This document shows positions 5,163 to 40,866 of a stretch of DNA of 64,000 nt, piece after piece; position 1 is the first letter of the stretch; the number at the start of each line of letters is the position of its first letter. The notes under the pieces are model-generated. The model was not told where the DNA came from. It was given only the letters and a program-made list of their open reading frames with translations, and did not search any database. The stretch is taken from contig NZ_JAQNDL010000005.1 in NCBI RefSeq assembly GCF_028368995.1, positions 448,001 to 512,000 on the forward strand. Reading direction: 5' to 3'. The DNA is from Nannocystis bainbridge (GTDB lineage: Bacteria; Myxococcota_A; Polyangia; Nannocystales; Nannocystaceae). A program made the translations under genes and the position numbers.

Positions 5163-5648
5163 CTAATTTCTCGCTTTCGAAATATCGCGCACCCGCACAT
5201 CGGACCGCTCGAAGGCCGACTCGCCGGTGATGACCGCAATCGCCGCCGGCCGCTCGGCGAGCAGCTTCCACGACTCGCCCTTGCTGCTGCTGAACAGCCC
5301 GTACACCGCGATCGCCTCCGGAGCTTTGGCGAACGTCAGCGGGATCACCGATTCCTGGCCGGGCAGCACCACCAGCGTCTGGACCACCGTCTCGTCGGGC
5401 TGGACCACCAGGCGGGCCACCGTCGAGTAATCATCCTCGACGAAGCTCTTGCGCGTCGCCGTGCGCACGACCACCTGCAGGGGTCGGCCGTTGTTGCTGT
5501 TCTTCGCGGCGCGAACCGTCAGCGTCACCGTCGGTTCCTTCGGCGTCTTCGGCGGCGCCTCGGCCTTGCAGCCCGGGAGCGCCGACGCGAGCGCCACCAG
5601 CATCGCGGCCAGCAGCGATCGGCGGGTCATGGTCGTTCGCGCCATCAT
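5163..5648 (-). CDS. T6SS outer-membrane lipoprotein, IglE/TssJ-like
   Basis: Lipobox ALPGC; start overlaps the tssM stop; NNGRPLQVVVR...FVEDDYSTVARLV...YGLF...ESWKLL resembles IglE/TssJ. Confidence 0.75.
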   Translation of the reverse strand: MMARTTMTRRSLLAAMLVALASALPGCKAEAPPKTPKEPTVTLTVRAAKNSNNGRPLQVVVRTATRKSFVEDDYSTVARLVVQPDETVVQTLVVLPGQESVIPLTFAKAPEAIAVYGLFSSSKGESWKLLAERPAAIAVITGESAFERSDVRVRDISKARN

Positions 5649-8600
5649 CCGCCGCAGTCCCTGACGGCGAAGGGGAGCCAGGGGTCGCTCTCGAGGACCA
5701 CGCTGACATCGCGGGTCGTCGGCGCCACCTCGCCGACGGTCACGCGCCAGCGCACGGGCAGCCGCTTGCCGGCGCTGGCCTGGGTCTGGCTGCATCGCGT
5801 CGCGCGGCCGATGGCCGCCGCCGTCAGCGTGAGGCGCCGCTCGGAGGTCCGCTCGTTCTCGCCGCGATCGAGCAGCCGATAGAAGCTGAACGGACCGTCC
5901 TCCTCGATCGTGTAGGTACGCGGGCCCGCGCCCGGGACCGCGGAGCGCATCTCCAGCGAGACCACCGAGCTGCCCTGATTCCACCACTGGAGCGCCAGGG
6001 TCTGCGGCTCCGGCCGCTGATTGAAGCCATACACCGCCGCGCCGCCGCTGCGCACGTAAGACATCGCGGCGAATCGCTCCTCGTGCGGCTCCTTGGGCAG
6101 CAGCTTCGGCTTCAGCACCACCTTGAGCGGCACGGGATTGCCGTCGGCGTCCCACAGCTTCCGGCTCGTCCGCTCGAGGTCGCTCGTCATCGCCAGCATG
6201 CCGGTCGGTCCCTGCAGATCGGCGAGCATCGTGCGCTGGCCCGAATCGAGCTTCGTCGCCGGCGCGAGCAGCCGGTCGAAGGCCGCCCAGAACGAGCCGC
6301 GCTCCTTCCCCTGGGCCCGCACCACCGCCTCGAGCTCGGCGACGTCGACGTCGACCTCGGCCGAGGGGCTGAAGGGATAGGCCTGGAGGAGCGGGCGCAC
6401 CAGCGGCCGGACCTCGTCCTTCCAGGCCCGCCGCACCTCGGATTCGATGTCGTCGATCCCGAGCGCGCGCACCTCCTGCACCGGCGCGAGGAAGGGCGCG
6501 TGCCAATCGTCGCTCAGCCCGGCGCCGTTCAACCATTCGGCGACCTGCTCCGCGGGGTCGTCCCCGGGGCTCTGCAGCGCGTGCAGGGTGAAGAGCCCCA
6601 GCGGCGTGAGACGCTCGTGGAGCTGGAGCCCGTCGCGCGCCGCGGGAGCGCCGCCCAGGGCGGGCTCCAGCCCGGCCAGGAGCTTTTGATAGGGACCGAG
6701 CCCGGGGTTCGTGCCGTCCTTGGTGGCGAGCAGCGCGACGAGCGGCTCGAACACCTCGAGGGCCGTGGCGAGCGGCTGGACATACGGGTCGTCCTCACTC
6801 AGCTCGAGCGACGCGTTTGCGGTGACCACCGAGAGGTACTCGACGAACCATCCCGACGGCCGCGAGAACCCCTGCAGGACGAAGGGCAGCGTCATCTCGG
6901 TCGCCGGGTCCAGCTCCATGCTCCAATAGTAATCGAGCAGCTCGCGCTTGTAGGTGACCGCATACCGCTGCGTGCACTCCCGGATCGCGCGATCGAGGCG
7001 CTGCGCCTCGGCGATCGTCATGCCGAGGGCCGCCAGCGCGGCGCCCTCGGGCTCGCGGATCGCCGGGCCGAGACGCTCGGCCGCGAACTCCAGCACGGGC
7101 TCGATCCGCTGCTGATACGCGGCCTTGGTGTAGGTCCCGCGGATGAATCGGCTCGGCCCGCCGCCGTAGCCGCTGACGATGCCGACACGGGGCCGCTCCT
7201 CGGTCTCGTCGAAGAACGCGGTCCCATCGTTCATCCGCGACTCCGGGATGTCCGCCAGGACCTGCTGAATGAGCACTTTGGACATGCTGCGCTTGAACAG
7301 GGCCGCCAGCGCCGAACCCTTCAATTCCACCGTCTTGCCGTCGAACGCGATCGTGAAATCACGGGGGATCGCAGGCGGCCTTCGCTCGAGCGCGGAGACC
7401 AGCGTCCCGAGCCCCCAGCCCTCCGTCCGGCTCGCGTCCGTGGCACCTCCCTCGCGCGGCAGGTGCGTCCGCAGGGCCTCCGCGAGCGCCGTCAGGGTCG
7501 CGTACTGCTCCTCGGTCCACAGGTCGATCGGCTCGTCCACCAACAACCGGCGGAACCGACCCTCGAGCAGATCGGGGCGGTCGAAGGCCTTCCGGATCGC
7601 CGCCAGCACCTTGTAATCGGACGGGCTGAGCAGGGCGGGGATCTTCGCCAGCGCCTCGGCCTCCTCCAGATCGATCGTCGGTTGGCCGACCTTCTCCTGC
7701 AGCGCCACGAGGTACCGCGACCACTCGCGCCCGACGTTGTCATACTTCTCGCGCGCCGCGGGATCCGCGGGCTCCGGCGGCTCCGGCGGCTTGACGCTCC
7801 CCATCTCCGGAGAGCTCGCCTCGACGTAGTGCTTGATGACCTCGCCCGAGAGACCGAGCGCGTGCTCCCACAGCGAGCGATGCTCGCGGATGATCGCCCC
7901 GAGCTCGTTGGCGTGACTCGAGTAGATCAGCGCCATGAGGTAGTGCAGCTGCAGTCGATCGCTGCAGGGGATCTTCGGGTAGAGGTAGCCCTTGCGGAAC
8001 GTCTCCTCGAACCGCTCCTCGATGTCGCGCTTGCGGGCGACGAAGGTGCGCGCGAACCACAGCCGCTCCGATTGCTTGACGGCTTGGAGCGCCGCGGCCT
8101 CTGCTTTGGGCGGTTCCATCTTCGCCCCCGCGCCCTGGTGTTTGCAAACCTCCGGATCCTTCACAGGGCCGACGTCGCGCTCGAACTTGTCGATCCGCGC
8201 CTCGGCCTCCACGATCGACGCCCGGTGCCAGCCCATGAGCGACGCGATCAACGCGGCGCCACCCACCCCGACGGCCAGCGCGCCTCGCAGCCCGCGCTGG
8301 TGATGGCGGCCGAGGCTCGTCGAGATCAGATCGCGGGAGATCTGGAATGGCAGGCCCACGTGGGTGCGGGGCGCCAGCGAGCCGAGGTAGAGGCCGCCGA
8401 CGCTCAGCGGCATCGCGTGGGGCTCGTGCCGCCCCTGCAGCGTCTCCAGGAGCGGCCGCAGGCCGTCCAGCAGCGCCCGCAACGACTTGTAGAAGCGGAC
8501 CAGGCGGTCGAACTCCTCGCCGCTGCGGCTCGTCAGCGCGTACGCCAGGTGCCCGTCGAAGGTGGCGACCAGGCGCGCGGCCTGGTTCGGCTCGGTGAGG

Positions 8601-9316
8601 GACTCGAGCTCGAGAGGTTCGTGATCGGGCCCGACCACCGCGGCGAACGCCTCGAAGCCGTCGACCTGATCGAGGTGGCTGAGCAGCACGCGGACCTCGA
8701 GCGACGCCCGGCATCGCCGCGGGAACAGGCCGATCTTGCCGCGGACGAGCTGCGCCAGCTCGTGCAGCGCCGCCGGCGGCGTGGTCAGCAGCGAGCGCGC
8801 GTCGAGCACGAGGACCACCGTCGCGCTCGGGCCCATGTGCCACCACATGCGCCATAGGGCCTGGCGGGCGCCGCGGCTGACGTCGCGCAACAGCGGCGCC
8901 GACAGCTCGTGGACGACGACGTCGGGGCCGAGGTAGAGCTGCAACGCGGCGTCGTGGGCGACGCTACCGCGGAACTGATTGGCCTGACCGCGCCAGTCGA
9001 CGTGGCTCGAGATCGCGTGCGTCTTGCCGACCCCCGCGGCGCCCATCACGACGACCGTCGGAAAGTGGAGCGCGCGGGTCGGGATCCGGCGGTAGAACGG
9101 GCGCCACAGCCCGGCCAGGCGCGACGCGAGCAGCGGCCCGGCCGGCCTCGGCGGCGCCGCGGCCGCTCGCTTGCGCCGCCACACGACGACCGCCCACACC
9201 ACGGCCGCCAGGACTACTACCAGTAACAGGCCGAGGAGCGCCCACTGCCACCAGGAGAACATCTCCGGCGCCATGGCGCTCGCTCCTTCGGCTTCGTCCG
9301 TCGTCATCGTCAACAT
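5645..9316 (-). CDS. tssM: T6SS membrane complex TssM/IcmF (PdpB-like)
   Basis: 1223 aa; N-terminal TM, Walker A GAAGVGKT, LSHLDQVDGFEAF, second TM, large periplasmic region with YPF and GPFSFYRLLD; start codon uncertain. Confidence 0.85.
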   Translation of the reverse strand: MLTMTTDEAEGASAMAPEMFSWWQWALLGLLLVVVLAAVVWAVVVWRRKRAAAAPPRPAGPLLASRLAGLWRPFYRRIPTRALHFPTVVVMGAAGVGKTHAISSHVDWRGQANQFRGSVAHDAALQLYLGPDVVVHELSAPLLRDVSRGARQALWRMWWHMGPSATVVLVLDARSLLTTPPAALHELAQLVRGKIGLFPRRCRASLEVRVLLSHLDQVDGFEAFAAVVGPDHEPLELESLTEPNQAARLVATFDGHLAYALTSRSGEEFDRLVRFYKSLRALLDGLRPLLETLQGRHEPHAMPLSVGGLYLGSLAPRTHVGLPFQISRDLISTSLGRHHQRGLRGALAVGVGGAALIASLMGWHRASIVEAEARIDKFERDVGPVKDPEVCKHQGAGAKMEPPKAEAAALQAVKQSERLWFARTFVARKRDIEERFEETFRKGYLYPKIPCSDRLQLHYLMALIYSSHANELGAIIREHRSLWEHALGLSGEVIKHYVEASSPEMGSVKPPEPPEPADPAAREKYDNVGREWSRYLVALQEKVGQPTIDLEEAEALAKIPALLSPSDYKVLAAIRKAFDRPDLLEGRFRRLLVDEPIDLWTEEQYATLTALAEALRTHLPREGGATDASRTEGWGLGTLVSALERRPPAIPRDFTIAFDGKTVELKGSALAALFKRSMSKVLIQQVLADIPESRMNDGTAFFDETEERPRVGIVSGYGGGPSRFIRGTYTKAAYQQRIEPVLEFAAERLGPAIREPEGAALAALGMTIAEAQRLDRAIRECTQRYAVTYKRELLDYYWSMELDPATEMTLPFVLQGFSRPSGWFVEYLSVVTANASLELSEDDPYVQPLATALEVFEPLVALLATKDGTNPGLGPYQKLLAGLEPALGGAPAARDGLQLHERLTPLGLFTLHALQSPGDDPAEQVAEWLNGAGLSDDWHAPFLAPVQEVRALGIDDIESEVRRAWKDEVRPLVRPLLQAYPFSPSAEVDVDVAELEAVVRAQGKERGSFWAAFDRLLAPATKLDSGQRTMLADLQGPTGMLAMTSDLERTSRKLWDADGNPVPLKVVLKPKLLPKEPHEERFAAMSYVRSGGAAVYGFNQRPEPQTLALQWWNQGSSVVSLEMRSAVPGAGPRTYTIEEDGPFSFYRLLDRGENERTSERRLTLTAAAIGRATRCSQTQASAGKRLPVRWRVTVGEVAPTTRDVSVVLESDPWLPFAVRDCGG

Positions 9317-9328
9317 CGTCGCGCCTCG

Positions 9329-9553
9329 TCATCTGCCGACAGCGGGCCAACCTCGGGTCCGCAGGCGGGCCTCGAGCAGATCCTCGAGCAGGTCGAGCCG
9401 CGGCCCGACATCGACCGGAGCGTCGCCCGTCGCCGCGAGCATTCGCCGCAGCTCGTCCAGCGGTCCGGCCAGCGCAGAGAACGCCTCTCCATCGGCCGGG
9501 AACAACCGCTCGACCTCTCGCACGAGCGCCTCCAGGGCCGCGAGCAGGGTCAC
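9329..9553 (-). CDS. Small helical hypothetical protein (74 aa) between dotU and tssM
   Basis: GTG start overlaps the dotU TGA (GTGA), with GGGAGG upstream; MTLLAALEALVREVERLFP...LDLLEDLLEARL is amphipathic and fills the gap. Confidence 0.65.
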   Translation of the reverse strand: MTLLAALEALVREVERLFPADGEAFSALAGPLDELRRMLAATGDAPVDVGPRLDLLEDLLEARLRTRGWPAVGR

Positions 9554-10305
9554 AACATCCCTCCCACCGGATGATTCGAGAGCGCGGTCAGCAGCCACGC
9601 GCTCGCCACGACCACCAGCAGCCCCAGCGCATAATATCGCCAGGTGGGCCACGGCTGCGGCAACTCCCCGGGCTCCGGATCGAGCGGCTCCGATACGGCC
9701 GAAGGATGGGGGATGCGCTCGGCGAGCCGCTGCTTGTAGAAGTGAATCTGCCCCGAGTCGGTGGCGAACATGCCCACGAAGCCGTGGCTCAGACAATAAT
9801 AGTAGACCTCGAGCACCAGCGCCGGCGTCCGCGGGTCGTGGAGCGCGTCGTCGATCGCGGTGAAGAACTCGCTGCCGCCGGTGGTCGTGCGCGTGAACTC
9901 CGTCTGCATCAGCGGCCAGCTGAGCCGCAGGTAGTCGGGGAGCAGACGCATGATCCGCTCGTCGAAATGGACCAACAGGGCCCGGCGGATCCGCTCGAAT
10001 CCTGGCTCGCCGGCGAACGCGGCCCACAGCGTCTCCAGGCGCCTGCGAACCGCCTCGCGGAGGCCCCCGAGGCGCTCGTGGTCGCGCTCGTCGAGCCCGT
10101 CGGTCCGCATGGGAGCCGGCACCTCGATGGCGCCCGTCCCGGCGCGAACGTCTCGCCACGCGGTCTCGCGCAGCGGCGTCGCCACGCGCGGCGGCGCCGT
10201 CGTGAGCGGACGGCGGCCAGGGAGGTCCGCGGCCTCGGCCGCCACGAGGGCGTCGATCTCCGCGGAGAGATCGAGGAGCACCGTCCACAGCGCCTGTCGC
10301 GTCAT
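9550..10305 (-). CDS. tssL: T6SS TssL/DotU
   Basis: FDERI...WPLMQTEF...GGSEFF...LEVYYYCLSHGFVG motif and a C-terminal TM helix. Confidence 0.9.
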   Translation of the reverse strand: MTRQALWTVLLDLSAEIDALVAAEAADLPGRRPLTTAPPRVATPLRETAWRDVRAGTGAIEVPAPMRTDGLDERDHERLGGLREAVRRRLETLWAAFAGEPGFERIRRALLVHFDERIMRLLPDYLRLSWPLMQTEFTRTTTGGSEFFTAIDDALHDPRTPALVLEVYYYCLSHGFVGMFATDSGQIHFYKQRLAERIPHPSAVSEPLDPEPGELPQPWPTWRYYALGLLVVVASAWLLTALSNHPVGGML

Positions 10306-11927
10306 CGGCTCGGCCTCGCCTTCTCGCCGCGTCGGCGCGCGCCGGCCTCATGCGTGCGGATCTCGGCCGGGTTGTTGCTCCACGCGTTGATGAGCGCCCC
10401 CAGACAATGCAAGTAGTCCGCGACCAGCCCACGGCGCTCCGCCGCGACGTCGCCGAGGGTCACGTCGTACACGTGCTGCACCCCGCCGCGATTGCCCGCC
10501 GGTTCATCGCGGACATCGACGTGCCGGATCTCGTCCGCGACATCGCCGTGGGGGCCGTGTGCATCGGCGCCGAGCGTCGTCATCAGCATGACGATGTCGC
10601 TGCGGCTCAGGACCCGCTTGGCGCGGCGCGACATCACGTGCAGCATCGCCGTCGAATCGCGCCACAGCGGGCTGCGGCGGTGCGGCGTCATCCGGCCCAG
10701 CACGCGGAACCCGACGCCCTCGAAGTGGCGGTGCTGCAGCGAGGCATCGAGCGCGCCGACGGCCACGGCGTCGAAGCTCGGCTGGAACCAGCGGGCCCGC
10801 ACCAGCACGCTGCGCGGGTGCATCAGGGCGTCGGGCAGCCGCAGCAGCAGGTGCGCCGCGTCCGGTTCGCCGGTGTGGTCGAGCTCCCAGCTCTCCGCCC
10901 CGCCGGCCAGGTGGCCGGGCAGCAGCGGATCGAGGCCGTCGCGGGTCTCCTGCTGGACCTCGACGATCGAGTGGAACGCGACCTCGTGGTCGACGCGCCA
11001 CGGGCGGATCGCGTGGCGGGAGCGCGTCCCGTCGGCCTTGATCGGCTCGGCCAGCTCGGTGAACAGGTTCTCGATCGGCACCACGAACAGGCGGAACATC
11101 TCCGAATTGACGACCTGTCCTTCGGGCCATGCGTCGAAATCGAGGCACAGCCACGCCTGCCGCCACGGCCGCGACGGCCGCGCGAGATCGACGGCGAGCG
11201 TCAGATCCTTGGCCGGGAAGTGGAAGAACTCGCGGATCCGCGCGACCGCGCTGCGCGTCTCGCCAGGCGGCGCGGCCTCGTCGGACTCGCCTGGCGCGCC
11301 GAGCCAGAACCGGCACTCGGCCCCGGGCTCGGTCGGCGACGGCGGCTCGCCGTACACGACCGCGACCCGGCTCAGGTGGAGGCGCAACCACTCGAAGAAT
11401 TCGCGCGACACCGGGTAGTCGCCGAGGTGATCGATCTGGAGGGACAGCGGCTCGGGCACGCCGGCGACCGGGACCCGCGAGCGCAGCCGGAGCAGCACCC
11501 GGTGGCCTGAGCCGCCGAGCAATTGCAGCTCGGCGCGGTCGAGGTCGAGCGGGCGGATCGTCACGTCGCGCATGGTCGAGAAGAACCCCACCTCGCCGTC
11601 GGCGGTCTCGAGGCGGACCCGGCTCCCGCGGGGAATGTGGGCAGGCTCGGCCAGGCGCGGGCTCGGCAGCCCGCGGAGCAGCACGCGGGCCGGCTGCGGC
11701 AGCGCGAACTCGTCGAGCAGCCCGTGCGTGAGCCGGGCGATCGCCCCGCGCAGCTCCGCCGCCGCCGCCTCGTGCGTGCGCGCGGCGAAGAACGCCAGCG
11801 ACTCCATCAAGCGGCGGACATCGGGGTCCTCGGGCTGGATGAAGCCCTCCCCGCCGCGGCGGCGGAGCAGGAACTCGTCGAGGGCCTCCAGCTCGCCGAG
11901 AAAGTCGCGATAAAAGCCCTGGTTCAC
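10302..11927 (-). CDS. tssF: T6SS baseplate TssF (IglH-like)
   Basis: EDPDVRRLMESLAFFAAR, REFFHFP and VPIENLF...EPI are TssF motifs; operon position fits. Confidence 0.85.
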   Translation of the reverse strand: MNQGFYRDFLGELEALDEFLLRRRGGEGFIQPEDPDVRRLMESLAFFAARTHEAAAAELRGAIARLTHGLLDEFALPQPARVLLRGLPSPRLAEPAHIPRGSRVRLETADGEVGFFSTMRDVTIRPLDLDRAELQLLGGSGHRVLLRLRSRVPVAGVPEPLSLQIDHLGDYPVSREFFEWLRLHLSRVAVVYGEPPSPTEPGAECRFWLGAPGESDEAAPPGETRSAVARIREFFHFPAKDLTLAVDLARPSRPWRQAWLCLDFDAWPEGQVVNSEMFRLFVVPIENLFTELAEPIKADGTRSRHAIRPWRVDHEVAFHSIVEVQQETRDGLDPLLPGHLAGGAESWELDHTGEPDAAHLLLRLPDALMHPRSVLVRARWFQPSFDAVAVGALDASLQHRHFEGVGFRVLGRMTPHRRSPLWRDSTAMLHVMSRRAKRVLSRSDIVMLMTTLGADAHGPHGDVADEIRHVDVRDEPAGNRGGVQHVYDVTLGDVAAERRGLVADYLHCLGALINAWSNNPAEIRTHEAGARRRGEKARPSR

Positions 11928-11930
11928 GCC

Positions 11931-12485
11931 TCAGCCCGCCTTGATCAGCGACCCGCCGATCGTCGTCATGCTGCCCTTGAGCGCCGCCATGCCCGAGGAC
12001 TCCAGCGACAGCTGCGCGTCGGCCTTGACCGCCACCTGCATGCCCGCGAGCTCCGCCTGCGTGTTGCCCTTGAGCTTGATCGACTGCGTGCCCGACGCCT
12101 CCACCGTGGCGCCCTCGATCTTGGCCGCGCTCTGGGCCTTGATCGCGACGTTGGCCCCGGAGACCTTGAAGTCGTTCTGGGCCTGCTGCACCACGTCGGC
12201 GCCCGACTTCACGGTCGTATTGCCCTCCTTGGACTCATAGGTGGCCGTCTTCGTGGCCGTGCAGGTGATCGACTCGCGCGCGACCACCTCGAATTGCTTG
12301 CACGAGATCGTCACCTTCTCGGTCGTCTGCGTCAGGGACGTCTCCTCTTGCTCGCCTTTGACCTTCGCCACCAGCGTCGTCCCGTTCATGGTGATCGTCT
12401 GCACGATCTTCCCCTCGGCGTCTTCGACGGTGATCGTCACGCCGCGCTCCTTGCTCATCTCCAGGGTGCAGATCAGCTTCGTCAT
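11931..12485 (-). CDS. vgrG: Short needle-only VgrG (gp5 beta-helix), Francisella-type
   Basis: 184 aa of alternating beta-strand repeats ending ...AALKGSMTTIGGSLIKAG; no gp27 domains; follows a hub-like gene. Confidence 0.7.
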   Translation of the reverse strand: MTKLICTLEMSKERGVTITVEDAEGKIVQTITMNGTTLVAKVKGEQEETSLTQTTEKVTISCKQFEVVARESITCTATKTATYESKEGNTTVKSGADVVQQAQNDFKVSGANVAIKAQSAAKIEGATVEASGTQSIKLKGNTQAELAGMQVAVKADAQLSLESSGMAALKGSMTTIGGSLIKAG

Positions 12486-12491
12486 CGCGCG

Positions 12492-14521: not shown

Positions 14522-14524
14522 CGC

Positions 14525-15793: not shown

Positions 15794-15797
15794 CGCG

Positions 15798-16373: not shown

Positions 16374-16397
16374 CGCTTGTCTCCTCGCTGTTTGCTA

Positions 16398-18851
16398 TCA
16401 GGCCCCGCCGAGCGCCGCTTCCAGCCGCAGCTCGACGTCCATGCCCTGGAACTGGATGTGCGGCAGCACCGCGACCTTGCAGCTGTACCAGCCGAACGGC
16501 CCCGGCTTCGGCTCGACGCTGACCGACATGGCCTTGAACGGGTAGTAGAGCAGCGTCAAATCGTCCGGGTTGACCGCCGTCGTCACGTACTCGACCAGCC
16601 AGGCCTCGAGCATCGACTGGATGTATGGCGCGTCGGCCGTCGAGCCGATGTAATCCCGCACCATCCGCTTGACGTAGTGGGCGATGCGCGTGATCGACAG
16701 CGTATACGCCAGGTTGCAGATCAGGTCGGCGTTCTTGGTGTCGAGGTCGTCCTCGAACTCGATCGCCCGCTTGACCGCGCGCGCGCTGAAGAACGTCACG
16801 TCCGCCGTGCCCTTGCAATGGACCAGAGGGATGAAGCCGGCGTTGGCCAGCTGCAGCTCGCGATAGTCCGGGATCGCCACCTCGACCGGCGGCTGCAGCT
16901 CCTCCTGCCCGTGGTGGAGCACCATGTGCACCGGCAGGCCCTTGATCAGCCCGCCGCCGAGCGGCCCCGCGATGTGCTGACACCAACCCGACGCCTGGAA
17001 CGAGCGCACCATGTTGCGGGCGAACAGCACCGCCGCGTTGCCCCACAAGTAGTCGCCCGGCCCGCCGATCTTCTCCTCGAAATCGACCGCCTGCTGCTTG
17101 CCGGCCTGGCGCACGTAGGGCGCGCGCAGCATGTAGCGCGGCATGGTCAGGCCGATGTAGGCCGCCCCGTGCGTCTCGCGGAAGGCCGCCCACCGCCCGT
17201 ACTGCGGCAGCGCCATCAGCTCCTCGATGTCCGGCTTGCGATCGAGCTCCTCCCAGGTCTCGCTGGAGAAGAAGCGCGGGCTGACCGCCGCGACGAACGG
17301 GCAGTGCGCCGCGGCGCTGATCTTCGACACTGTCTGCAGCCAGTCGATGTCCTCGTCGCTGTTGTCGAACTCGTAGAGCCCGATCATCACGCCGATCGGC
17401 CGCCCGCCGTAGCGATCGTACTCGTCGATGTAGACCTTGCGGAACAGCGCGCTGTTGAGGATGTAGCTCGAGTGGTCCTCGAAGTCCGCGCGCAGCACCT
17501 CCTTGTCCGCGTCGAGGAAATCGATGATGACCTCGTTCGAGTTCACCTCGCGGCACAGATCGTCGAGCGACCGCCAGCTCGTCTCGAGCGCGCGCAGGCT
17601 CGGGCTCTGGACCACCCCGGCCAGCCGCTTCTGCACCAGCCCGTCGAGCTCGTGCAGCAGCGTGTCGATGGCGATCATCATGGTGCGGATCGAGTCGACC
17701 CGGCGCCCCTCGAGGAACGGGTCGATGTTGACCAGCAGCACCGCCAGGATGTTGGCGAAGCGGTCCGCGAGGGTGAAGCTCGTGTCGCGGTCGTGGAACG
17801 CCAGGTTGGCGCTGCCCGGTCGTTCGACCAGCGCGCGCTGCTTGTTCTCGGACGGGTTCATGCCCGCGCTGCTGATCAGCCGCTCGAGCAGCGCCTTGGC
17901 GTCGGGCTCGGGCTCGTCCGGCGCCGCATCCACGGGGGCCGCAGCGGCGTCCGGGCGGGCCTCTGCCACCAGCAGCGGATACCTCCGGCGGAAGTACCCG
18001 CGCAGCTGCCCGAACGCCGACTTCTCGCCCTCGGCGACCGGCACCTCGCGCAGCTGCACGAGCTCGGCCTTGAGCGCCTCCCGCAGCTCCGGGAAGCTCG
18101 AGATGTGATTGCGCGCCTCGAGCACCAGCCGATGCAGCAGCACGATCCGCCGGATCTCCGGCACGCTCATCGCCACGTGCAACGGCTTGAAGTCGTTGAT
18201 CGAGCGCAGCGGGATCGTCAGATCGACCGGCACCTTCTCGGCGCTGACCTGGCTCTTGAGCCCGCCCGTCAGCTCCGTCGCGGCGCTGTCGTTGGGGCCG
18301 ACCGTGACCTCGAATTCCCCGTGGACATCGCCCGTGAGCCCGATCTCGGCGCCCGGCGGCGGCTCGACCTTGCCGTGAACCGAGAGCTTCACCGGGGTGC
18401 CACCATCGGGGATCGCCAGCTCTCCGTTCGCGAACGGCAGCATCGCCTCTCCGCTGATCTCGACCTCGCCGGCGAAGCTCCCGAGCCGGTTGGCCCGGAA
18501 GTCGCCCTTCACCGTGGCCGTGCCGCGGATCTTGACCTTGGCCTCCGTCGCCCCGGCGGCGGGCTCACCGACCAATGTTCCGGTGACCGACCCGGCGAGC
18601 GCCCCGGCCAGCACCTCGCGCAGCTCGGCGTCTTCGATCGGCGCCGTCACCTTCATCTCGTCCATGAAGCTGGCCAGCTTCATGCCCGGCAAGATCGAGT
18701 GGATCGGACGCTCCCCAAGCAGGCGCCGGTTGGCCCCCGTGAAGTCTCCGAGCACCAAGAAACGCATCGGCAACTTGGCCTTCTTCGGTTTGCCGTCGAT
18801 CTTGGTCCGATAGCTGATGTTGAGACGCGAACGAGGGACTGGCTTACTCAT
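16398..18851 (-). CDS. tssBC: Fused contractile sheath TssB-TssC (IglA-IglB-like), 817 aa
   Basis: N-terminal PRSRLNISYRTKIDG...LPMRFLVLGD and SINDFKP...VPEIR (IglA/TssB); C-terminal LETSWRSL, EYDRYGGRP, YLWGNAA and GWYSCKVAVLPHIQFQGM (IglB/TssC); no internal stop. Confidence 0.9.
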   Translation of the reverse strand: MSKPVPRSRLNISYRTKIDGKPKKAKLPMRFLVLGDFTGANRRLLGERPIHSILPGMKLASFMDEMKVTAPIEDAELREVLAGALAGSVTGTLVGEPAAGATEAKVKIRGTATVKGDFRANRLGSFAGEVEISGEAMLPFANGELAIPDGGTPVKLSVHGKVEPPPGAEIGLTGDVHGEFEVTVGPNDSAATELTGGLKSQVSAEKVPVDLTIPLRSINDFKPLHVAMSVPEIRRIVLLHRLVLEARNHISSFPELREALKAELVQLREVPVAEGEKSAFGQLRGYFRRRYPLLVAEARPDAAAAPVDAAPDEPEPDAKALLERLISSAGMNPSENKQRALVERPGSANLAFHDRDTSFTLADRFANILAVLLVNIDPFLEGRRVDSIRTMMIAIDTLLHELDGLVQKRLAGVVQSPSLRALETSWRSLDDLCREVNSNEVIIDFLDADKEVLRADFEDHSSYILNSALFRKVYIDEYDRYGGRPIGVMIGLYEFDNSDEDIDWLQTVSKISAAAHCPFVAAVSPRFFSSETWEELDRKPDIEELMALPQYGRWAAFRETHGAAYIGLTMPRYMLRAPYVRQAGKQQAVDFEEKIGGPGDYLWGNAAVLFARNMVRSFQASGWCQHIAGPLGGGLIKGLPVHMVLHHGQEELQPPVEVAIPDYRELQLANAGFIPLVHCKGTADVTFFSARAVKRAIEFEDDLDTKNADLICNLAYTLSITRIAHYVKRMVRDYIGSTADAPYIQSMLEAWLVEYVTTAVNPDDLTLLYYPFKAMSVSVEPKPGPFGWYSCKVAVLPHIQFQGMDVELRLEAALGGA

Positions 18852-18894
18852 GTGATCTTCCCGTACACAGCGACTAATCATGGGAACAGCGGTG

Positions 18895-18961
18895 GCACCA
18901 AAAAAGGTGCGAGCTGTGTTTTTCGGCGCTGAAAAGCCGGCACATGTTTCCGATCGGAAAC
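18895..18961. promoter_or_regulatory. Palindrome cluster in the divergent T6SS promoter
   Basis: GCACC-A6-GGTGC (18895-18910), TTTC-N6-GAAA (18921-18934) and a perfect GTTTCCGATCGGAAAC (18946-18961). Confidence 0.5.
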
Positions 18962-19067
18962 GACGAAGCGCAAGGCCGCGCATCGGCCAGATCGGCGCAT
19001 GGCGACGGCGTCTGGCAGATATCGTATGCGCTTTACTGGATCGCGCGTCCGTGTATCATGCCCTCCT

Positions 19068-19787
19068 ATGTTGGAGTTATTGCCGCCGACCTCCCCCTGT
19101 CCCCCCCACGCCGACCCCCGGCTCGAGCGGACCACGACGAGGATCCGGGACCTGGTGGCCGGGACGCACCTCCAGATGGCGCTCTCCATCGGTCGAATCG
19201 TGGTCGAGGAGATTTATGACGGAGACCTCAAGAGCTGGCGCCGCCGCGGCCCGAAGGACCCTTCTCTGCGCCGGCTAGCCGCCGATCCCCGGCTCACGAT
19301 CAGCGCCTCTGCGTTATATCGCGCGCTCGGAATCTTCGAGCTCAAGGTGCGGTTCGCGGATCATCCGATGTGGGATATGCTCACGGCCTGCCACCTTCGG
19401 GCGGTGCTGGGGCTGCCGGAGTCGGAGCAATGCCGCCTGCTCGATCTGGCGACCACCAGCGCCTGGACCTCCCAGACCCTCGAGCACGCGGCGGCCATCA
19501 GCCGCGACAACCACAAGACCTCGCGCGGCGGCCGTTCGCGCAAGTCCCCGGTCGTGCGTGCGATCGAGACCGCCGAGCGAGCGCTGGCCGGCGACCAGGA
19601 CGTGGACGTGGCGTCCCCCGCCGTGCTCGTCGAATTGCCGGCGGAGCAGCGCGACGACCTCCTGCGCCGCCTCAGCCTGATCCGCGAGCGCTGCGCCTCG
19701 CTCGCCACGGCGCTGGAGGGCCAGCTCCCCGAGTCGCACGCGCGATCGGAGTCGAAGCCCGGCGTCTCCTCGTACGCCCCCCATTGA
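19068..19787 (+). CDS. Putative DNA-binding protein (ParB-HTH-like region)
   Basis: SLRRLAA...ISASALYRAL and LTACHLRAVLGLPESEQ..L.....WTSQTLE recall ParB/KorB central helices; basic GGRSRK; start uncertain (18999 or 19068). Confidence 0.5.
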   Translation: MLELLPPTSPCPPHADPRLERTTTRIRDLVAGTHLQMALSIGRIVVEEIYDGDLKSWRRRGPKDPSLRRLAADPRLTISASALYRALGIFELKVRFADHPMWDMLTACHLRAVLGLPESEQCRLLDLATTSAWTSQTLEHAAAISRDNHKTSRGGRSRKSPVVRAIETAERALAGDQDVDVASPAVLVELPAEQRDDLLRRLSLIRERCASLATALEGQLPESHARSESKPGVSSYAPH

Positions 19788-19867
19788 GCGCGATCGCCCG
19801 GCCCCATTTCGCGAATGGTTATTCGCGAGCAACGTAAAATTTGGACCCCCTCTCGCCAGGCCCCAAG

Positions 19868-21622
19868 ATGGCAGACGAGCTCGGGACAGTGTTCGCGGAT
19901 CACATCATCGCCGCATGCTCGCTCATCGCCCCTTCCTCGGGCCGGACCGGCGATCTGGACTGGCTGCGCGCCACCCACCGAATGCCGGGGGCGTTCTGGG
20001 AATCGCTGTTCCGCGTGCTCGACGACGGCAGGGGCCCGCCGCTCAAGAGCCGGCCCAGCGAGGGCTTCGACCCCTATCACGATATGGTGGTCCGGCATCT
20101 CGGTGCCGATCGAACTGCGCTCCAGATCCACGATCCACGGCTCCCTGAGGGACACCGCTGGCAGTCGTTCTCATTCGACGACCTCCACGCTCGGTGCACG
20201 CTTCGCGCCGCCTCATGGGCCGCCCAGGGCGTCGAACCCGGAGCGATTGTCTGCGTCGTGCTGCCATTCGGTGTCGAATGTGCGATATCGCTGCTGACCG
20301 CGTTGCGCATCGGCGCCCTCGTATCACTGCTCGAGCCCGGGGGCCCCGACCTCCTCGGACGGCGCCTCGAAGCGCTCGCACCCCGGCACATCGCCACCGA
20401 CGCCTTCTATCGACCGTTGCTCGGCCTATTCGCCGATCTGACCCTCGAGCCAGCCGCGAGTCCCCCGCTGTTCGGCGCGCCATCGCGCTGGTATCGCCCC
20501 GGTGAGCCCTGCGCCGCGCTGTTCTCCCCGCTGCGCCGGCCGCCCCACCTGCCGGTCCCGCTCCGCTGCGACGAGCTGTACCTCGGCGCGCTCCGGGACG
20601 GCGCCATGACCTTCGCGTTGCGCCCCGGCGACCGCCTCGCCGCGCCCGGCTTCGATGCGCTGCAGCACCAACCCGCCCTGCTGTTCGCGGCGCTGCTGGC
20701 GGGTGCCACCTATGTGCATATCGAGGCCGAGGAGGCGCTCCGCGACCCCCGGCTTTTGGACGCCTTTCCGCTGCGCAGCCTCGGGCTCGGCGCGCGCATA
20801 TGCGAGCACCTGTTGGGCACGCGCGCCATCGCTCGTCCGCAGTGGTCGCACGTGTTTCGCAACCCCGAGGAGCCGACCGACTGGGAGTCCTGGCGCGAGC
20901 TGATCGACGCGCTGGGCCTGCACGAGACCGCCATGTCCAATGTCGTGCTCGAAGCGGCCGCCGGCGGCTCTCTGCTCGGTTCGCCGCGCCGGCCGGGCAA
21001 GGCCCACCTGGGCGCCCTCATGAACCTCGTCCCCGCCGCCGGTCGGCCGTGGAAGCTGCTGGACTTCACCGGCAGCGGCCAGCCGGCCGTCGGCGACGTC
21101 GGCGTCTTCGCCCCGCTCGCCACGATCGACGCCGACGCCGACACCGACCCGCTCGACCCCCACGTCGTGCTCGGCCTGAGACACGGCGGCGAGTTCCTGT
21201 ACGGCGGCGCCACCGAGCCCCGCCGCAGCGGCCGCGTCTACCCTGTCGACGAGGTGCTCGCAGCCCTCGACGATTGCCCGTTCCTTCACGGCGCCAGCCT
21301 CGTCGCCGTCCCTGCTGGCGGCCCGACCCTCGCGCATCGCTTCGTCCTGCTCGGCTTCACCGGCGACGAGCCGATCGCCAGCTTCGAGGCCCTCCGCACC
21401 GCCCGCATCGACGAGCTGAAGCGGGTGCTGAGCACGCGCCTCACCCCCGACTTCTTGCCCGACGCGATCGAGCTGTTCCCCTGCTTCGCCCGCCTCGCCG
21501 ACGGCGCGGTCGATCACCGGTGGTGCCAATTTCAATTCCATAGCGGGGCCCTGCACGCCAGAGTGCGGACCCCCGTATTTCAGCGGCTGACGGCCCTTCG
21601 CGGCGCACTCGGCCGCGCGTGA
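19868..21622 (+). CDS. Degenerate AMP-binding (acyl-CoA synthetase-fold) protein in the iglF position
   Basis: YHDMVVRHLGADRTAL...SFDDLHAR...QGVEPGAIVCVVLP...LLTALRIGA matches the ACS N-terminal pattern; SGRVYPVDEV near the C-terminus; no YTSGTTG loop. Confidence 0.65.
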   Translation: MADELGTVFADHIIAACSLIAPSSGRTGDLDWLRATHRMPGAFWESLFRVLDDGRGPPLKSRPSEGFDPYHDMVVRHLGADRTALQIHDPRLPEGHRWQSFSFDDLHARCTLRAASWAAQGVEPGAIVCVVLPFGVECAISLLTALRIGALVSLLEPGGPDLLGRRLEALAPRHIATDAFYRPLLGLFADLTLEPAASPPLFGAPSRWYRPGEPCAALFSPLRRPPHLPVPLRCDELYLGALRDGAMTFALRPGDRLAAPGFDALQHQPALLFAALLAGATYVHIEAEEALRDPRLLDAFPLRSLGLGARICEHLLGTRAIARPQWSHVFRNPEEPTDWESWRELIDALGLHETAMSNVVLEAAAGGSLLGSPRRPGKAHLGALMNLVPAAGRPWKLLDFTGSGQPAVGDVGVFAPLATIDADADTDPLDPHVVLGLRHGGEFLYGGATEPRRSGRVYPVDEVLAALDDCPFLHGASLVAVPAGGPTLAHRFVLLGFTGDEPIASFEALRTARIDELKRVLSTRLTPDFLPDAIELFPCFARLADGAVDHRWCQFQFHSGALHARVRTPVFQRLTALRGALGRA

Positions 21623-21644
21623 GCGCGAGGAGGAGGAGGAGACC

Positions 21645-22034
21645 ATGGCCATCGCAGTGTGCATGGGAGCCACCATGATGTGCAGCTTCGGCGTCGCGCC
21701 GGCGAGCCTCGTCGTCCTGCCGACCGGCTCGATGGTGACGCCCGCCGTCCCCTCCGCCAACATCTCCGCCTTCGCCCCGGTCGCCAACGTCCCCCCGTTC
21801 GGCGCCTGCACCTCGATGGCCAACCCCACCGTCGCCGCCGCGACCGCGGCCGCCCTCGGCGTGCTCACGCCGATGCCCTGCGTGCCCATGACCACCTCGC
21901 CGTGGATCCCCGGCACGCCGACCACAATCAACGGGGCCATGCCTGCCGTCGACGCCAGCTGCAAGCTCATGTGCAACTGGGGCGGCTGCATCTCCGTCCT
22001 CAACCCCGGTCAGACGACCCTGATGGTCCAATGA
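21645..22034 (+). CDS. PAAR-like DUF4280 protein (IglG-like spike tip)
   Basis: GATMMCSFG...PFGAC...PCVP...W.PG...LMCNWGGCI....GQ is the DUF4280 pattern with four conserved Cys; GGAGGAG RBS. Confidence 0.9.
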   Translation: MAIAVCMGATMMCSFGVAPASLVVLPTGSMVTPAVPSANISAFAPVANVPPFGACTSMANPTVAAATAAALGVLTPMPCVPMTTSPWIPGTPTTINGAMPAVDASCKLMCNWGGCISVLNPGQTTLMVQ

Positions 22035-23242
22035 TCGAGCCGCTGCCCTCCCCCGGCGAATTGCTGCGCGGCCGGCACTCCGGCGCCGCGACCGTCCGCA
22101 GCGACGCGAACGGCGTCGTCCACAAGCTGCTCGACCTGGCCGACCGCGGCAATTACCTCGAGGCCGCCGCGCAAGCCGCCGAGCTGCTGCAGGGCGCCTC
22201 CGACGACGTGCGCCTCGTCGCCGTCTACTTGGCCGGCCTGTTCGTCGAGCGCGGCGTCCCGGCGCTGCCCGAGCTCCTCGAGGTGGTGGAGAAACTGGGC
22301 GACGAGCCCTCGCGTCCCCTCGCCTCCGCCCTCGAGTGGCTGTTCCGCGCCGTCGTCGAGCGCGTCGCCTTTCACACCACGCAACGCGACGCCACCTGGG
22401 AGTCCTGGCTCCGTGAACTCGACCCCGCCCAGGTCGACGCGCTCGCTACCCGCTGCGATGCCCTCGCCGCCCGCTTCGCCACGGGAGCCGCCGCGCTGCA
22501 GAAGCTCGCGCGCTGGGCCCGCGAGAAGCTGATGCCGGCGGTCGCCCGCGCCAGGAAGAGAGCGCCCCCCGAGCCCGCTCCGGCCGCCCTGCAACCCGCC
22601 CTCGATCCCGAGCCCGAGCGAGGCCCTGCCTGGGACGCCGCCGAGCCCGAGCCCGCAGACGACGAATCCGAGGACGACGAGCACGACGACGCGCTCGAGC
22701 ACGACGAGCACGACGACGAGCACGAGCACGACGACGACGATCCGAGACGCGAGCACGACGAGCGAACCGTGGATCTCGACGAACCTCGCTTCGAGCGAAG
22801 GCGCGGCGAGCGGCCCGTGGCGTCGGACGAAGCTCGCTTCGCGCGGCGACGCGGCGAGCGAGCCATGGAGCTCGACGAGCACAGCCGCGAGCATCGACGC
22901 GGCGAGCGAATCACGGAGTTCGACGAGGCCCGGCGTCCCGAGCGAGCCGTCGTGCTCGACTCACCCGCCCTGCTCGAGCTGCGCGACAAGCTGCACGCGT
23001 TCGAGGTCGTCCTGGCCCGCGGCGAGCTCGACAAGGCCGCCGTGATCGCCCACGACGTCCAGTCGATCCTCGGCAACTTCGATCCCGTCTTCTACTTGCC
23101 CGCGCTGTTCGGCCGCTACTCCGAGCTCCTCCACCACGCCTTCCCCGAGCTCGAAGCGCGCTGGAGCGACACCGCCGACCCGCGGTGGCGGATCCTCGTC
23201 CAGTTCTACCGCACCAACCTCGCCGGCTTCGTCGGCGAGTGA
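22031..23242 (+). CDS. IglI/TssA-like T6SS protein with an acidic repeat-rich linker
   Basis: ATGA overlap with the DUF4280 gene; DVRLVAVYL N-terminal domain; C-terminal KLHAFEVVL...KAAVIAHDV..IL.NFDPVFYLPALF. Confidence 0.65.
   Translation: MIEPLPSPGELLRGRHSGAATVRSDANGVVHKLLDLADRGNYLEAAAQAAELLQGASDDVRLVAVYLAGLFVERGVPALPELLEVVEKLGDEPSRPLASALEWLFRAVVERVAFHTTQRDATWESWLRELDPAQVDALATRCDALAARFATGAAALQKLARWAREKLMPAVARARKRAPPEPAPAALQPALDPEPERGPAWDAAEPEPADDESEDDEHDDALEHDEHDDEHEHDDDDPRREHDERTVDLDEPRFERRRGERPVASDEARFARRRGERAMELDEHSREHRRGERITEFDEARRPERAVVLDSPALLELRDKLHAFEVVLARGELDKAAVIAHDVQSILGNFDPVFYLPALFGRYSELLHHAFPELEARWSDTADPRWRILVQFYRTNLAGFVGE
22660..22950 (+). repeat. Asp/Glu/His tract and ~48-bp degenerate coding repeats inside the IglI-like gene
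   Basis: DDEHDDALEHDEHDDEHEHDDDD followed by about four ER....DE.R..RRRG units. Confidence 0.7.
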
Positions 23243-24474
23243 CGCCGGTTCGCATGCCGCCCGCCGCTCCGACCGCGACCGACCGACTCGCCGCCATCGA
23301 GCAGCGCGTGGTCGCCAGGATCCACGACTTCGAGGTCGGGGCGCTGCTCGATCTGCTGGCGTCGATCGGCTACGGCCCCGGCGAGCTCGAGTTCCGCGCC
23401 CACCCCTCGAACGGCCCCCAGCCCGCGCTGCTGCACGCGATCGCCTTCCCCGACCCGCACGCGCGCGCTCTCGGCCGCGCGCGCGTCGTCATCACCGTCA
23501 ACCTCGGCCTGCTCAGCTGTCGCTCGCCGCTGCCGACCTACTTCCGCCGCCTCTTGCAGGACATGGAAACGCGGGATCCCGTACTCGAGCTGATCGGCGT
23601 GCTCGATCGCTCGCTCCTGCACACCCGCCTCACCAGCGATCGACCGGAGCGCATGCTCGCCGGCTGGGACCGGGTCCGCCGCGACCTCGTGCAGGTCTTC
23701 GGCCTCGACTCCCCGATCGGCCTGACCTGGCTGTTTCGCCAGATCTTCCCGGAGCTCGCGCTGCACGTGCGACGGATCTTCGACGAGCACCCGATCCCCT
23801 ACGACGGCGCCGTGCTCGGCACCTCCGAGCTCGGCGAGTGCTCCTTCGGCGAGTACGCCCGCGTCGGCGTGCACGACATGGAGGTCACCCTGTTCTGCGA
23901 GGACGCGCTCTACCGCGAGCGCATCCCGTGGATCCACGAAGGCGACCGACGATTGCGCAGCTCGGTGTTTCCGCTGCTCGACGAGGTCTGCCTGACCCTG
24001 ACCGTCGTGTTCGTCCTGCTGCGCCACGGTGAGGGCGCCCGCCTCGGTCCCCCCGGCCGCGCCGGCCACAATCCCATGTGGCGCCCCGGCACCGCCCCCG
24101 CGCTGCCGCCCAGCCGCGTCGAGGTCTATCGCGGCACCCTCCCTCGCAACGAACCCGACACCGACCACCTCGAGCGCATCCTCGCCGACGAACTCCCCGC
24201 TTCGCTCACCGTCCTCCCCGCGCCGTCCCCCGCGCATGAAACTCTCGGTCATGCCATCGCCCTTTCGCTGGTCCACCGCGCCCCCGGCGAGCGCCCGCAC
24301 ACCTATCACGTGACTGTGCGCTGGGGCTCGCGCGCGTGGGACCTCGACGAACCGCACGCGATCGACCTGCGCTGCGACGACGTGCCCAAGACGCCCCTGT
24401 CCCGCATCGCTCACCCGCGCCTGTGGGCCAAGCTCCGCGACGCGGCCCGCGCCTCGATCCCCCGAGACATCTAG
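23239..24474 (+). CDS. tssG: T6SS baseplate TssG (IglJ-like) with C-terminal extension
   Basis: GTGA overlap; ITVNLGLLSCRSPLPTYF parallels the TssG GL.G..SPLP.Y motif; SPIGL..LFRQIF. Confidence 0.7.
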   Translation: MTPVRMPPAAPTATDRLAAIEQRVVARIHDFEVGALLDLLASIGYGPGELEFRAHPSNGPQPALLHAIAFPDPHARALGRARVVITVNLGLLSCRSPLPTYFRRLLQDMETRDPVLELIGVLDRSLLHTRLTSDRPERMLAGWDRVRRDLVQVFGLDSPIGLTWLFRQIFPELALHVRRIFDEHPIPYDGAVLGTSELGECSFGEYARVGVHDMEVTLFCEDALYRERIPWIHEGDRRLRSSVFPLLDEVCLTLTVVFVLLRHGEGARLGPPGRAGHNPMWRPGTAPALPPSRVEVYRGTLPRNEPDTDHLERILADELPASLTVLPAPSPAHETLGHAIALSLVHRAPGERPHTYHVTVRWGSRAWDLDEPHAIDLRCDDVPKTPLSRIAHPRLWAKLRDAARASIPRDI

Positions 24475-24475
24475 C

Positions 24476-33881: not shown

Positions 33882-33890
33882 GAACCACGC

Positions 33891-40856: not shown

Positions 40857-40866
40857 TCATCCGGCG

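Follow-up and report, generated by a model that had tools for sequence, protein, structure and literature searches.

The window analyzed here is a 64,000-nucleotide stretch of the myxobacterium Nannocystis bainbridge (contig NZ_JAQNDL010000005.1, positions 448,001 to 512,000), and its subject is a type VI secretion system (T6SS) locus at window positions 5163–24474. To judge from the DNA, this locus very likely encodes a complete and probably working T6SS of a distinct family, sister of the systems on Francisella’s pathogenicity island (FPI; T6SS-ii) and the F. novicida island (FNI). No closer relative of the Francisella systems is known than this family, which is distinct from them and, as far as was searched, undescribed. 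It combines a canonical baseplate and membrane complex with a tube, spike, cap, IglI protein, and lipoprotein of the FPI type. An initial annotation, made from the letters alone, had called the locus a relative of T6SS-ii; the Francisella kinship is supported by the analysis below, with the amendment that TssE, TssK, and the Walker A motif of TssM mark a sister family rather than T6SS-ii proper.

In published reviews and genome surveys, T6SS-ii is confined to few hosts. As excerpted, Abby et al. (2016, PMC4793230) assign all 30 T6SS-ii systems to 18 Francisella genomes, PMC9600919 places T6SS-ii ‘in a class by itself’ and states that a Francisella TssE was never found, and PMC13098142 adds Dongshaea alone beyond Francisella. 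Taken together, the excerpted parts of PMC4793230, PMC9600919, PMC5924787, and PMC13098142 describe a system restricted to Francisella, plus Dongshaea, with no identified TssE. A full-text literature search, outside which most subscription journals and supplements lay, returned no report of an FPI- or T6SS-ii-like system in Myxococcota. A broad sister family with recognizable canonical parts would form an evolutionary bridge from T6SS-i to T6SS-ii, would sharpen the question of the missing Francisella TssE, and would provide non-pathogenic hosts for work on an IglC/PdpA-type machine.

Parts of the secretion locus

Because the G+C content of the window is ~70%, raw lists of open reading frames (ORFs) are crowded; genes were called with guidance from third-position G+C (GC3) and frame plots, which singled out one gene set, 5163–24474 (Table 1), and families were named by Pfam and NCBIfam scans. 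The minus-strand arm comprises ten named genes and one small ORF, running from the sheath gene to the lipoprotein gene. The plus-strand arm comprises five genes, of which the first begins 147 bp from the sheath gene and the last, TssG, ends at 24474. Five junctions (TssM/lipoprotein, TssF/DotU, DotU/74-aa ORF, DUF4280/IglI, and IglI/TssG) have a start codon that overlaps a stop codon by 4 nt; at the TssE/hub junction the overlap is 1 nt. These six junctions agree with the initial annotation, which had described two divergent operons with overlapping start and stop codons, and we read both arms as divergent, translationally coupled operons for a complete T6SS. Every frame at the locus is intact, with a GC3 of 0.85–0.96, zero frameshifts or internal stops, and strong coding periodicity in each gene.

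Pfam, NCBIfam, profile searches of the PDB, and fold comparison together identify, in this one locus, the parts that characterize a T6SS of any subtype: a contractile TssB/TssC sheath and its tube, a spike of the gp27/gp5 type, the TssEFGK baseplate, and the TssJLM membrane complex. TssC, TssK, TssE, and IglI_fam score above the curated NCBIfam cut-offs, and VipB, DotU, TssF, GPW_gp25, IglE_N, and DUF4280 above those of Pfam. All parts named in the initial annotation were recovered, the sheath proving to be one fused ORF; its list omitted a protein like the adenylate-forming (ANL) superfamily and a 74-aa ORF in the gap between DotU and TssM. The latter is kept in the same place in related Nannocystaceae-type loci (nine loci at E <= 0.005, best 1.4e-11, by tblastn).

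The sheath protein carries TssB and TssC in one chain, with the TssB N-terminal part at residues ~4–70, an insert of ~120 aa, the TssB C-terminal part at ~194–264, and TssC at ~390–817. The same fusion occurs in five metagenomic relatives at 81–87% identity. Among 14 solved sheath sequences, the best relative of the window TssC is IglB (3j9o_B, 340.9 bits; next, 282.4), which agrees with the earlier reading that the sheath motifs match IglA/IglB. In five related loci (L008, L006, L011, L014, and L015; sheath region ~5000–7700), a single tblastn match spans TssB and TssC, and the stop-to-stop frame of TssC is ~500–540 aa, so that the two genes would lie in-frame, split by a stop. The fusion, seen in the window, in Sorangium (L016), and in a Polyangia metagenome-assembled genome (MAG; L021), could have arisen by loss of the separating stop.

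No match to ClpV (TIGR03345) or to the Hcp families was found in the window, in accord with the earlier claim of a locus free of ClpV and canonical Hcp. A whole-genome search sited both elsewhere: the sole ClpV above cut-off lies at C2:1015899 and two Hcp genes at C1:4095017 and C2:1015273, the ClpV and one Hcp adjoining a canonical T6SS on contig C2. The genome holds three TssC loci, and the two on contig C2 are 30–34% identical to the window TssC. The third TssC of the genome (L002; G000:C2:1080483-1081382) lies within a 1122-aa open frame, groups with T6SS-i rows in the trees described below, and may be another extended or fused sheath protein.

The tube protein has no Pfam, NCBIfam, or PDB sequence match, and its profile drew only noise from the PDB. 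Its AlphaFold2 (AF2) model matches IglC (2qwu, E 1.7e-5, template modelling score 0.70), the only Foldseek match at E <= 0.001. VIA-align, which is independent of Foldseek, gives IglC a Z of 15.2 (root-mean-square deviation 3.0, 178 aligned) and Hcp proteins 8.8 to 6.8; by sequence, hhalign assigns tube and IglC a probability of 0.8%. The spike hub, also without a Pfam or NCBIfam match, points to PdpA by two routes. As a single sequence against the PDB, PdpA was its sole near-significant match (E 0.023), and a profile of 37 sequences (A1) found PdpA 6u9e alone (E 1.3e-6). For the AF2 model of the hub (predicted local distance difference test, pLDDT, 84.5), the top three Foldseek matches are PdpA–VgrG entries (E 1.6e-26 to 6.7e-26), followed by contractile-injection spikes (2.6e-20) and then canonical VgrG1 (8.5e-18).

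The neighboring 184-aa VgrG consists of the needle only, with T6SS_TssI_Fran as its only NCBIfam match at E <= 0.01; the spike of PdpA plus needle-only VgrG that had been proposed from the letters thus holds. Against the PDB, the needle profile (A4) matches the canonical VgrG needle 8gra at E 3.4e-7 and Francisella VgrG 6u9e_B at E 2e-4. The FPI-likeness of this protein lies in its needle-only architecture and its NCBIfam match, its sequence being not specifically FPI-like. The profile and Foldseek comparisons proposed in the initial annotation show that the hub, tube, and IglI-like protein match FPI parts better than canonical ones, the needle profile being the exception.

IglG is a DUF4280 cap with a Francisella-specific N-terminal extension that binds IglF. 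Of the IglG tip claimed earlier, the DUF4280 domain is present in the window protein, with four invariant cysteines, and the N-terminal extension is absent: NCBIfam T6SS_IglG (E 1.8e-14) aligns over positions 54–168 only of its 173-position model.

In the baseplate, the TssG profile (A5) finds the solved TssG entries 6n38_G (E 2.4e-4) and 6giy_C (E 3e-4) in the PDB, and the window TssG bears a C-terminal extension compared with its relatives of 282–320 aa. In the membrane complex, the TssM Walker A pattern occurs in the window and in 63 of the 63 related loci whose match spans the region. The lipoprotein scores higher with IglE_N (64.8 bits) than with the general TssJ family, T6SS-SciN (31 bits), and reaches E 4.3e-13 with NCBIfam T6SS_IglE, below cut-off. 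The IglI-family protein has a faint ImpA_N (TssA-like) signal (Pfam E 0.004); NCBI types IglI_fam as a ‘subfamily’, which we take to mean that its curators met IglI relatives more widely. An acidic, His-rich insert at residues ~240–345 of this protein contains three to four copies of a short Arg-rich motif, and tblastn matches in relatives break there.

The ANL-like protein is a previously unreported, near-constant member of the family. Its profile (A3) matches adenylation domains in the PDB (E 7e-19); the homology is that of the N-terminal subdomain, and the alignment ends ahead of the P-loop. The hallmarks of ANL enzymes are an ATP-binding P-loop, rich in Ser, Thr, and Gly and ending in PKG, and a C-terminal catalytic lysine. 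In 22 of 22 family members, a proline-rich segment replaces the P-loop stretch, and the C-terminal lysine position is not conserved; the 593-aa protein is read here as a putative pseudoenzyme. Because its gene adjoins that of DUF4280 in most loci, a complex prediction was run for the two proteins. It scored 0.71, against 0.00 for the best of three controls; 58 of 80 solved complexes attained that mark, as did 2 of 110 mismatched pairs. Runs share at least 90% of contacts, the partner pLDDT is at least 83, and the interface is formed by ANL-like residues 346–568. The model supports a predicted binding of the ANL-like protein to the DUF4280 cap, and a conserved, inactivated adenylate-forming enzyme with such a role would be an unexpected component. 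Its gene position beside DUF4280 is that of iglF beside iglG in Francisella. As a candidate IglF, the protein was rejected at the sequence level, with an hhalign probability of 0.1% and no hmmsearch match against the IglF-position ORF of G667, the Francisella-like genome used for comparison below.

Kinship with the Francisella systems

We placed the sheath among its relatives with three trees. A HMMER scan of 1.84 billion representatives yielded 150 matches, in which the first named outsider below the family was a Cysteiniphilum IglB (P0205, 352 bits). After 16 fragmentary or multi-domain rows were removed and the TssCs of 22 loci added, a 157-row FastTree joined the family to P0205 and P0206 with a support of 1.0. 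Two smaller trees, with rows hand-picked across the FastTree clades, were computed in IQ-TREE by quick search under the site-heterogeneous LG+C20 PMSF (posterior mean site frequency) model. The 56-row tree unites the family and FPI-type IglB at an SH-like approximate likelihood ratio test (SH-aLRT) support of 100. The 50-row tree, which includes both G667 sheaths, contains a 30-row superclade (SH-aLRT 100) made up of the window’s family (23 rows, support 90), the FNI-like sheath, and a separate group of FPI type (support 93). Both remaining TssCs of the host genome are placed with the 20 T6SS-i rows. Where the initial annotation had looked for TssC nesting within a T6SS-i clade as the outcome that would tell against it, the window TssC shares the superclade with an FNI-like sheath and IglB of the FPI type. 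The end branch of the window row measures 0.15–0.16 versus a median of 0.41–0.5, and the uniting branch measures 0.46–0.5 with an SH-aLRT of 100. Cysteiniphilum IglB is 41–44% identical to the family TssC in four genomes versus 34% to canonical TssC in one.

Three loci of gammaproteobacterial genomes of 3.0–3.3 Mb (L083 and L088 in G546, L084 in G713) have TssCs that group with FPI-type IglB at the same support of 93, and G546 carries two FPI-type TssC copies 11 kb apart. T6SS-ii proper may reach beyond the relatives of Francisella.

Comparison sequences came from two loci of G667 (2.05 Mb, 31–33% G+C), of which locus B holds the FPI gene set and locus A resembles the F. novicida island. The FPI comparison rests on this one genome because none of 401 genomes sampled from the class to which a Methylobacter carrier belongs had a sheath closely related to Cysteiniphilum IglB (best identity, 44%); the FNI comparison rests on the same single genome. 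In the FPI-like locus, family profiles found counterparts of PdpA, VgrG, IglD (E 1.4e-16), IglI, DotU, and IglE, with E-values that refer to small search spaces of 88 and 315 frames. The match of the family TssK profile to IglD, made in such a small search, illustrates how profile bridging helps assign uncertain Francisella baseplate parts. The family TssE profile found no counterpart among the 315 frames of both G667 islands (best E 0.057, for a 60-aa frame outside the island), and the TssF profile gave E ~0.03 against the IglH-position ORFs, too weak for use. Among 17 window proteins, blastp returned no match at E <= 0.01 to the PdpC, PdpD/E, and IglF ORFs of this one genome, a result limited to sequence methods. 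The Walker A pattern is absent from both TssM-position ORFs of G667 and, to our knowledge, from Francisella PdpB.

Set beside the FPI system, the window locus shares an IglB-lineage sheath, on a separate branch inside the superclade; an IglC-type tube replacing Hcp; a two-part spike, with the needle-only VgrG separate from a PdpA-type hub; an IglI-family protein and an IglE_N-type lipoprotein (the NCBIfam IglE equivalog being below cut-off); a DUF4280 cap; a locus without ClpV; and the order sheath–tube–TssK, which the initial annotation had recognized as FPI-like. It differs in several respects. TssB and TssC form a single insert-bearing chain, both TssE and TssK are of the canonical kind, and TssM retains its Walker A motif. 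The hub is 548 aa long versus the 820-aa PdpA chain, the cap is devoid of the IglG N-terminal helix region, and no IglF or PdpC/D counterpart is detectable in the window. The ANL-like pseudoenzyme is near-constant in the family, which is carried by environmental bacteria of high G+C.

The FNI-like locus of G667 shares with the window a DUF4280 protein without the N-terminal extension, 42% identical to the 129-aa window cap, as well as an IglI-like protein, DotU, an IglE_N-like lipoprotein, and a short VgrG. Its TssC is 42–45% identical to that of the window; the FPI one is 38%. It differs from the window locus in showing no TssE, no ANL-like protein, no Walker A at the TssM position, and a TssK barely seen by Pfam. 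According to excerpts of Rigard et al. (2016, PMC5014421), FTN_0037-0054 form the putative T6SS of the FNI, and its protein FTN_0054 is also without the IglG N-terminal extension. With T6SS-i, as represented by Myxococcus xanthus, enteroaggregative E. coli, Vibrio cholerae, and the contig C2 locus, the window system has in common the TssE/F/G/K baseplate, a TssB/TssC sheath, and a TssJ/L/M membrane complex whose TssM bears Walker A. Unlike T6SS-i, it has no Hcp-family tube, full-length VgrG, or ClpV in its locus; separate genes encode its hub and needle, the place of a typical TssA is taken by an IglI-family protein, and its TssC lies in another clade.

Distribution, mechanism, and alternative explanations

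A hub-profile scan of 185,579 species, each represented by a single genome, gave 254 pattern matches, 188 of them coding a relative, and 79 distinct loci were kept. By record title, 69 belong to Myxococcota or a ‘delta proteobacterium’; the other ten come from Methylococcales/Methylobacter (six), Desulfurivibrionaceae, Syntrophobacter, a Planctomycetota MAG, and a ‘Proteobacteria’ MAG. The analysis yielded nothing for or against the possible eukaryotic target suggested in the initial annotation. Since carriers include methanotrophs and relatives of sulfate reducers, predation is not a context common to the family. Within the host phylum the distribution is patchy, as the hub occurs in only 10 of the 401 genomes (7 of 255 genera) of an even sample. 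The host RpoB is 84–86% identical to that of the carriers Paraliomyxa, Enhygromyxa, and Nannocystaceae bacterium ST9, and 69–70% to that of Sorangium and Myxococcus. Hub homologues that carry a functional description are all labeled ‘hypothetical protein’, except for one UniRef ‘Lipoprotein’, and have zero Pfam domains. Four soil-metagenome runs of one study hold 0.41–0.69 of the words of the stretch; that study is possibly the source of the sample and hence not independent support. No RNA run was listed as containing the stretch.

Conservation was counted by tblastn of the window proteins (at least 40 bits) in the 54 loci with both 10-kb flanks. All 54 have the hub, VgrG, TssK, and IglI; the counts for the others are 53 (sheath, tube, TssF), 52 (ANL-like protein), 51 (TssG, DotU), 50 (TssE, TssM), 46 (lipoprotein), and 40 (DUF4280). 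A single co-linear order of 14 genes is common to 24 of the 54, and in the window’s relatives the first four genes are flipped into the divergent arm. The synteny survey suggested in the initial annotation thus reveals a gene set and order conserved across Myxococcota and other hosts, and their retention over 79 loci at 25–80% identity indicates purifying selection.

Assembly, firing, recycling, cargo, and target we infer mainly from homology. In general terms, an IglE-type lipoprotein, DotU, and P-loop TssM, perhaps with the 74-aa protein, would form a membrane complex that docks the TssE–TssF–TssG–TssK baseplate. The baseplate would enclose a two-piece spike, made of a PdpA-like hub trimer and the separate needle-only VgrG, with the DUF4280 PAAR-like protein on top. 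An IglC-like tube would then polymerize within the fused TssB–TssC sheath, the insert facing its surface, aided by the IglI-family (TssA-like) protein. Sheath contraction would fire the tube, the spike, and any cargo riding on it. The ANL-like pseudoenzyme, modeled on the DUF4280 cap, may be a tip-loaded passenger or a loading factor, and it is a candidate cargo together with two flanking proteins, orf467 and orf707. By analogy, sheath recycling could fall to a general unfoldase such as ClpB, for which excerpts of PMC5481754 and PMC7182274 describe a role in Francisella sheath recycling, or by the ClpV of the genome’s canonical T6SS.

Three other explanations compete with that of a sister family. 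The locus might be T6SS-ii proper: an orthologue of the FPI, transferred to or from relatives of Francisella, with a mode of action identical to that of the FPI system; the sheath–tube–TssK order, the PdpA-type hub with short VgrG, the IglI, IglE_N, and DUF4280 proteins, and the lack of ClpV all fit this idea. We nevertheless regard it as very unlikely, because TssE and TssK are canonical and above cut-off, with no TssE found by profile in the FPI- and FNI-like loci of G667; because Walker A is universal among the relatives whose match spans it and missing from both G667 ORFs; because the IglG extension is absent, the ANL-like protein does not resemble the IglF-position ORF in sequence, and no window protein matches the G667 ORFs at the PdpC and PdpD positions; and because the TssC tree sets the 23-row family apart from the FPI-type group. 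Even less likely, in our estimation, is a divergent T6SS-i subgroup whose FPI-like matches stem from shared fast evolution or long-branch attraction. Canonical models do recognize TssC, TssK, TssE, and TssF, the trees are unrooted, and a published TssC tree, as excerpted from PMC13098142, puts T6SS-ii itself within the wider T6SS-i radiation. Against this stand the sheath, hub, tube, IglI protein, and lipoprotein, which independently point to the FPI, the short branches of the family beside a fully supported uniting branch, and the closer identity of Cysteiniphilum IglB to the family than to canonical TssC. Least probable of all is that the locus is a functionless relic, silent or in decay. 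Such a reading fits the presence of another, canonical T6SS in the genome, with its own ClpV and Hcp, yet the intact frames and start/stop overlaps, the coding periodicity, and the purifying selection noted above are at odds with decay.

A sister family of the Francisella systems is accordingly the reading we prefer, and several points weigh against it. The evidence for the machine is of sequence and predicted structure. Several Francisella-specific NCBIfam matches (IglE, TssI_Fran, and IglG) fall below their curated cut-offs, canonical VgrG outranks Francisella VgrG in the needle-profile search of the PDB, and the modeled kinship of tube and IglC is visible at the fold level only. The trees are unrooted, carry quick-search supports, and were built without an outgroup from T6SS-iii or T6SS-iv; in those of 56 and 50 rows, the branching order within the superclade is unsettled. 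Finally, a canonical island with VgrG, DUF2169, and a PAAR-like toxin lies 7–20 kb off and could serve the contig C2 T6SS or the neighboring system.

Beyond the sister-family reading, and with somewhat less than even confidence, we suggest that Francisella T6SS-ii may be a reduced, fast-evolving offshoot of a large, undescribed environmental family, spread over Myxococcota, Methylococcales, relatives of Desulfobacterota, and a Planctomycetota MAG. That family would display the ancestral condition, with TssE, a canonical TssK, and a P-loop TssM, and would have gained a new core part, the ANL-derived pseudoenzyme, carried on the DUF4280 tip or loading it. If so, harmless and cultivable carriers such as Enhygromyxa (for example, E. 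salina), Corallococcus (C. coralloides), Archangium (A. gephyra), and Sorangium would become models for the building and cargo of an IglC/PdpA-type machine.

Coordinates and neighboring genes

Table 1. Features of the T6SS locus and its flanks, in window positions.
Feature	Position	Strand	Basis
orf707, candidate cargo gene, ~300 bp after lipoprotein gene	2740-4863	-	GT-B-like leads
IglE/TssJ-type lipoprotein, 161 aa, lipobox cysteine	5163-5648	-	Pfam IglE_N 64.8 bits (cut-off 26)
TssM, 1223 aa, Walker A motif at residue 92	5645-9316	-	Pfam IcmF-related_N, IcmF_C
Small ORF, 74 aa, in DotU–TssM gap	9329-9553	-	GTG start overlapping DotU stop
DotU/TssL, 251 aa	9550-10305	-	Pfam DotU 65.8 bits
TssF, 541 aa	10302-11927	-	Pfam T6SS_TssF 102.8 bits; TIGR03359 101 bits, below cut-off
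Needle-only short VgrG, 184 aa	11931-12485	-	NCBIfam T6SS_TssI_Fran E 7e-8, below cut-off
PdpA-like spike hub, 548 aa	12492-14138	-	Profile vs PDB and AF2 fold match to PdpA
TssE, gp25-like sheath initiator, 127 aa	14138-14521	-	TIGR03357 58 bits (cut-off 53.2); Pfam GPW_gp25
TssK baseplate protein, 422 aa	14525-15793	-	TIGR03353 275.5 bits (cut-off 100); Pfam T6SS_VasE
IglC-like inner tube protein, 191 aa	15798-16373	-	AF2 model pLDDT 90.8, fold match to IglC
Fused TssB–TssC sheath protein, 817 aa	16398-18851	-	Pfam VipA, VipB, VipB_2; TIGR03355 412 bits
Divergent intergenic region, 147 bp	18852-18998		Gene coordinates of both arms
orf262, lineage-restricted possible regulator	18999-19787	+	Faint similarity to LmbU family, E 0.045
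ANL superfamily-like protein, 593 aa, without P-loop	19841-21622	+	Pfam AMP-binding 30.1 bits, confined to N-terminal part
DUF4280 PAAR-like cap, 129 aa, without N-terminal extension	21645-22034	+	Pfam DUF4280 105.5 bits
IglI-family protein, 403 aa	22031-23242	+	NCBIfam IglI_fam 162.3 bits (cut-off 100)
TssG (IglJ position), 411 aa	23239-24474	+	Pfam T6SS_TssG E 0.0035; profile A5
orf467, candidate cargo gene, 1 nt past TssG	24476-25879	+	Weak TAGT glycosyltransferase match, E 4.8e-4, below cut-off

A scan of the divergent region for promoter and terminator consensus was uninformative, its sole promoter-like consensus site (19032-19059) lying within orf262. The orf262 product is without a Pfam match, and the gene is present in 6 of the 79 related loci. 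The locus is flanked by orf467 (TAGT/GT-A-like) and orf707 (GT-B-like) in stretches of 63–64% G+C (64% for positions 24001-26000, which include orf467), with glycosyltransferase-like leads below the naming bar. Both genes are absent from all 79 related loci and are possible lineage-specific effectors.

Past the plus arm, window positions 27091-31645 (minus strand), between the T6SS locus and the VgrG island, hold genes for a Ser/Thr kinase that bears an SH3_3 domain, for a PP2C phosphatase, and for a vWA protein, a row reminiscent of T6SS phospho-regulation modules; no FHA domain was seen in it. In the auxiliary T6SS cargo island that follows (31385-44080, plus strand), three genes encode DUF2169 adaptors (31385-32839, 40657-41838, and 42914-44080). 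A Tox-PAAR-like protein is encoded at 33891-35309 and a full-length canonical VgrG at 36426-38720, along with several unassigned ORFs. Farther along the minus strand, the window encodes a 1221-aa M36 fungalysin-type metalloprotease with a PA domain (47604-51269) and a 1107-aa FG-GAP repeat protein (53653-56976).

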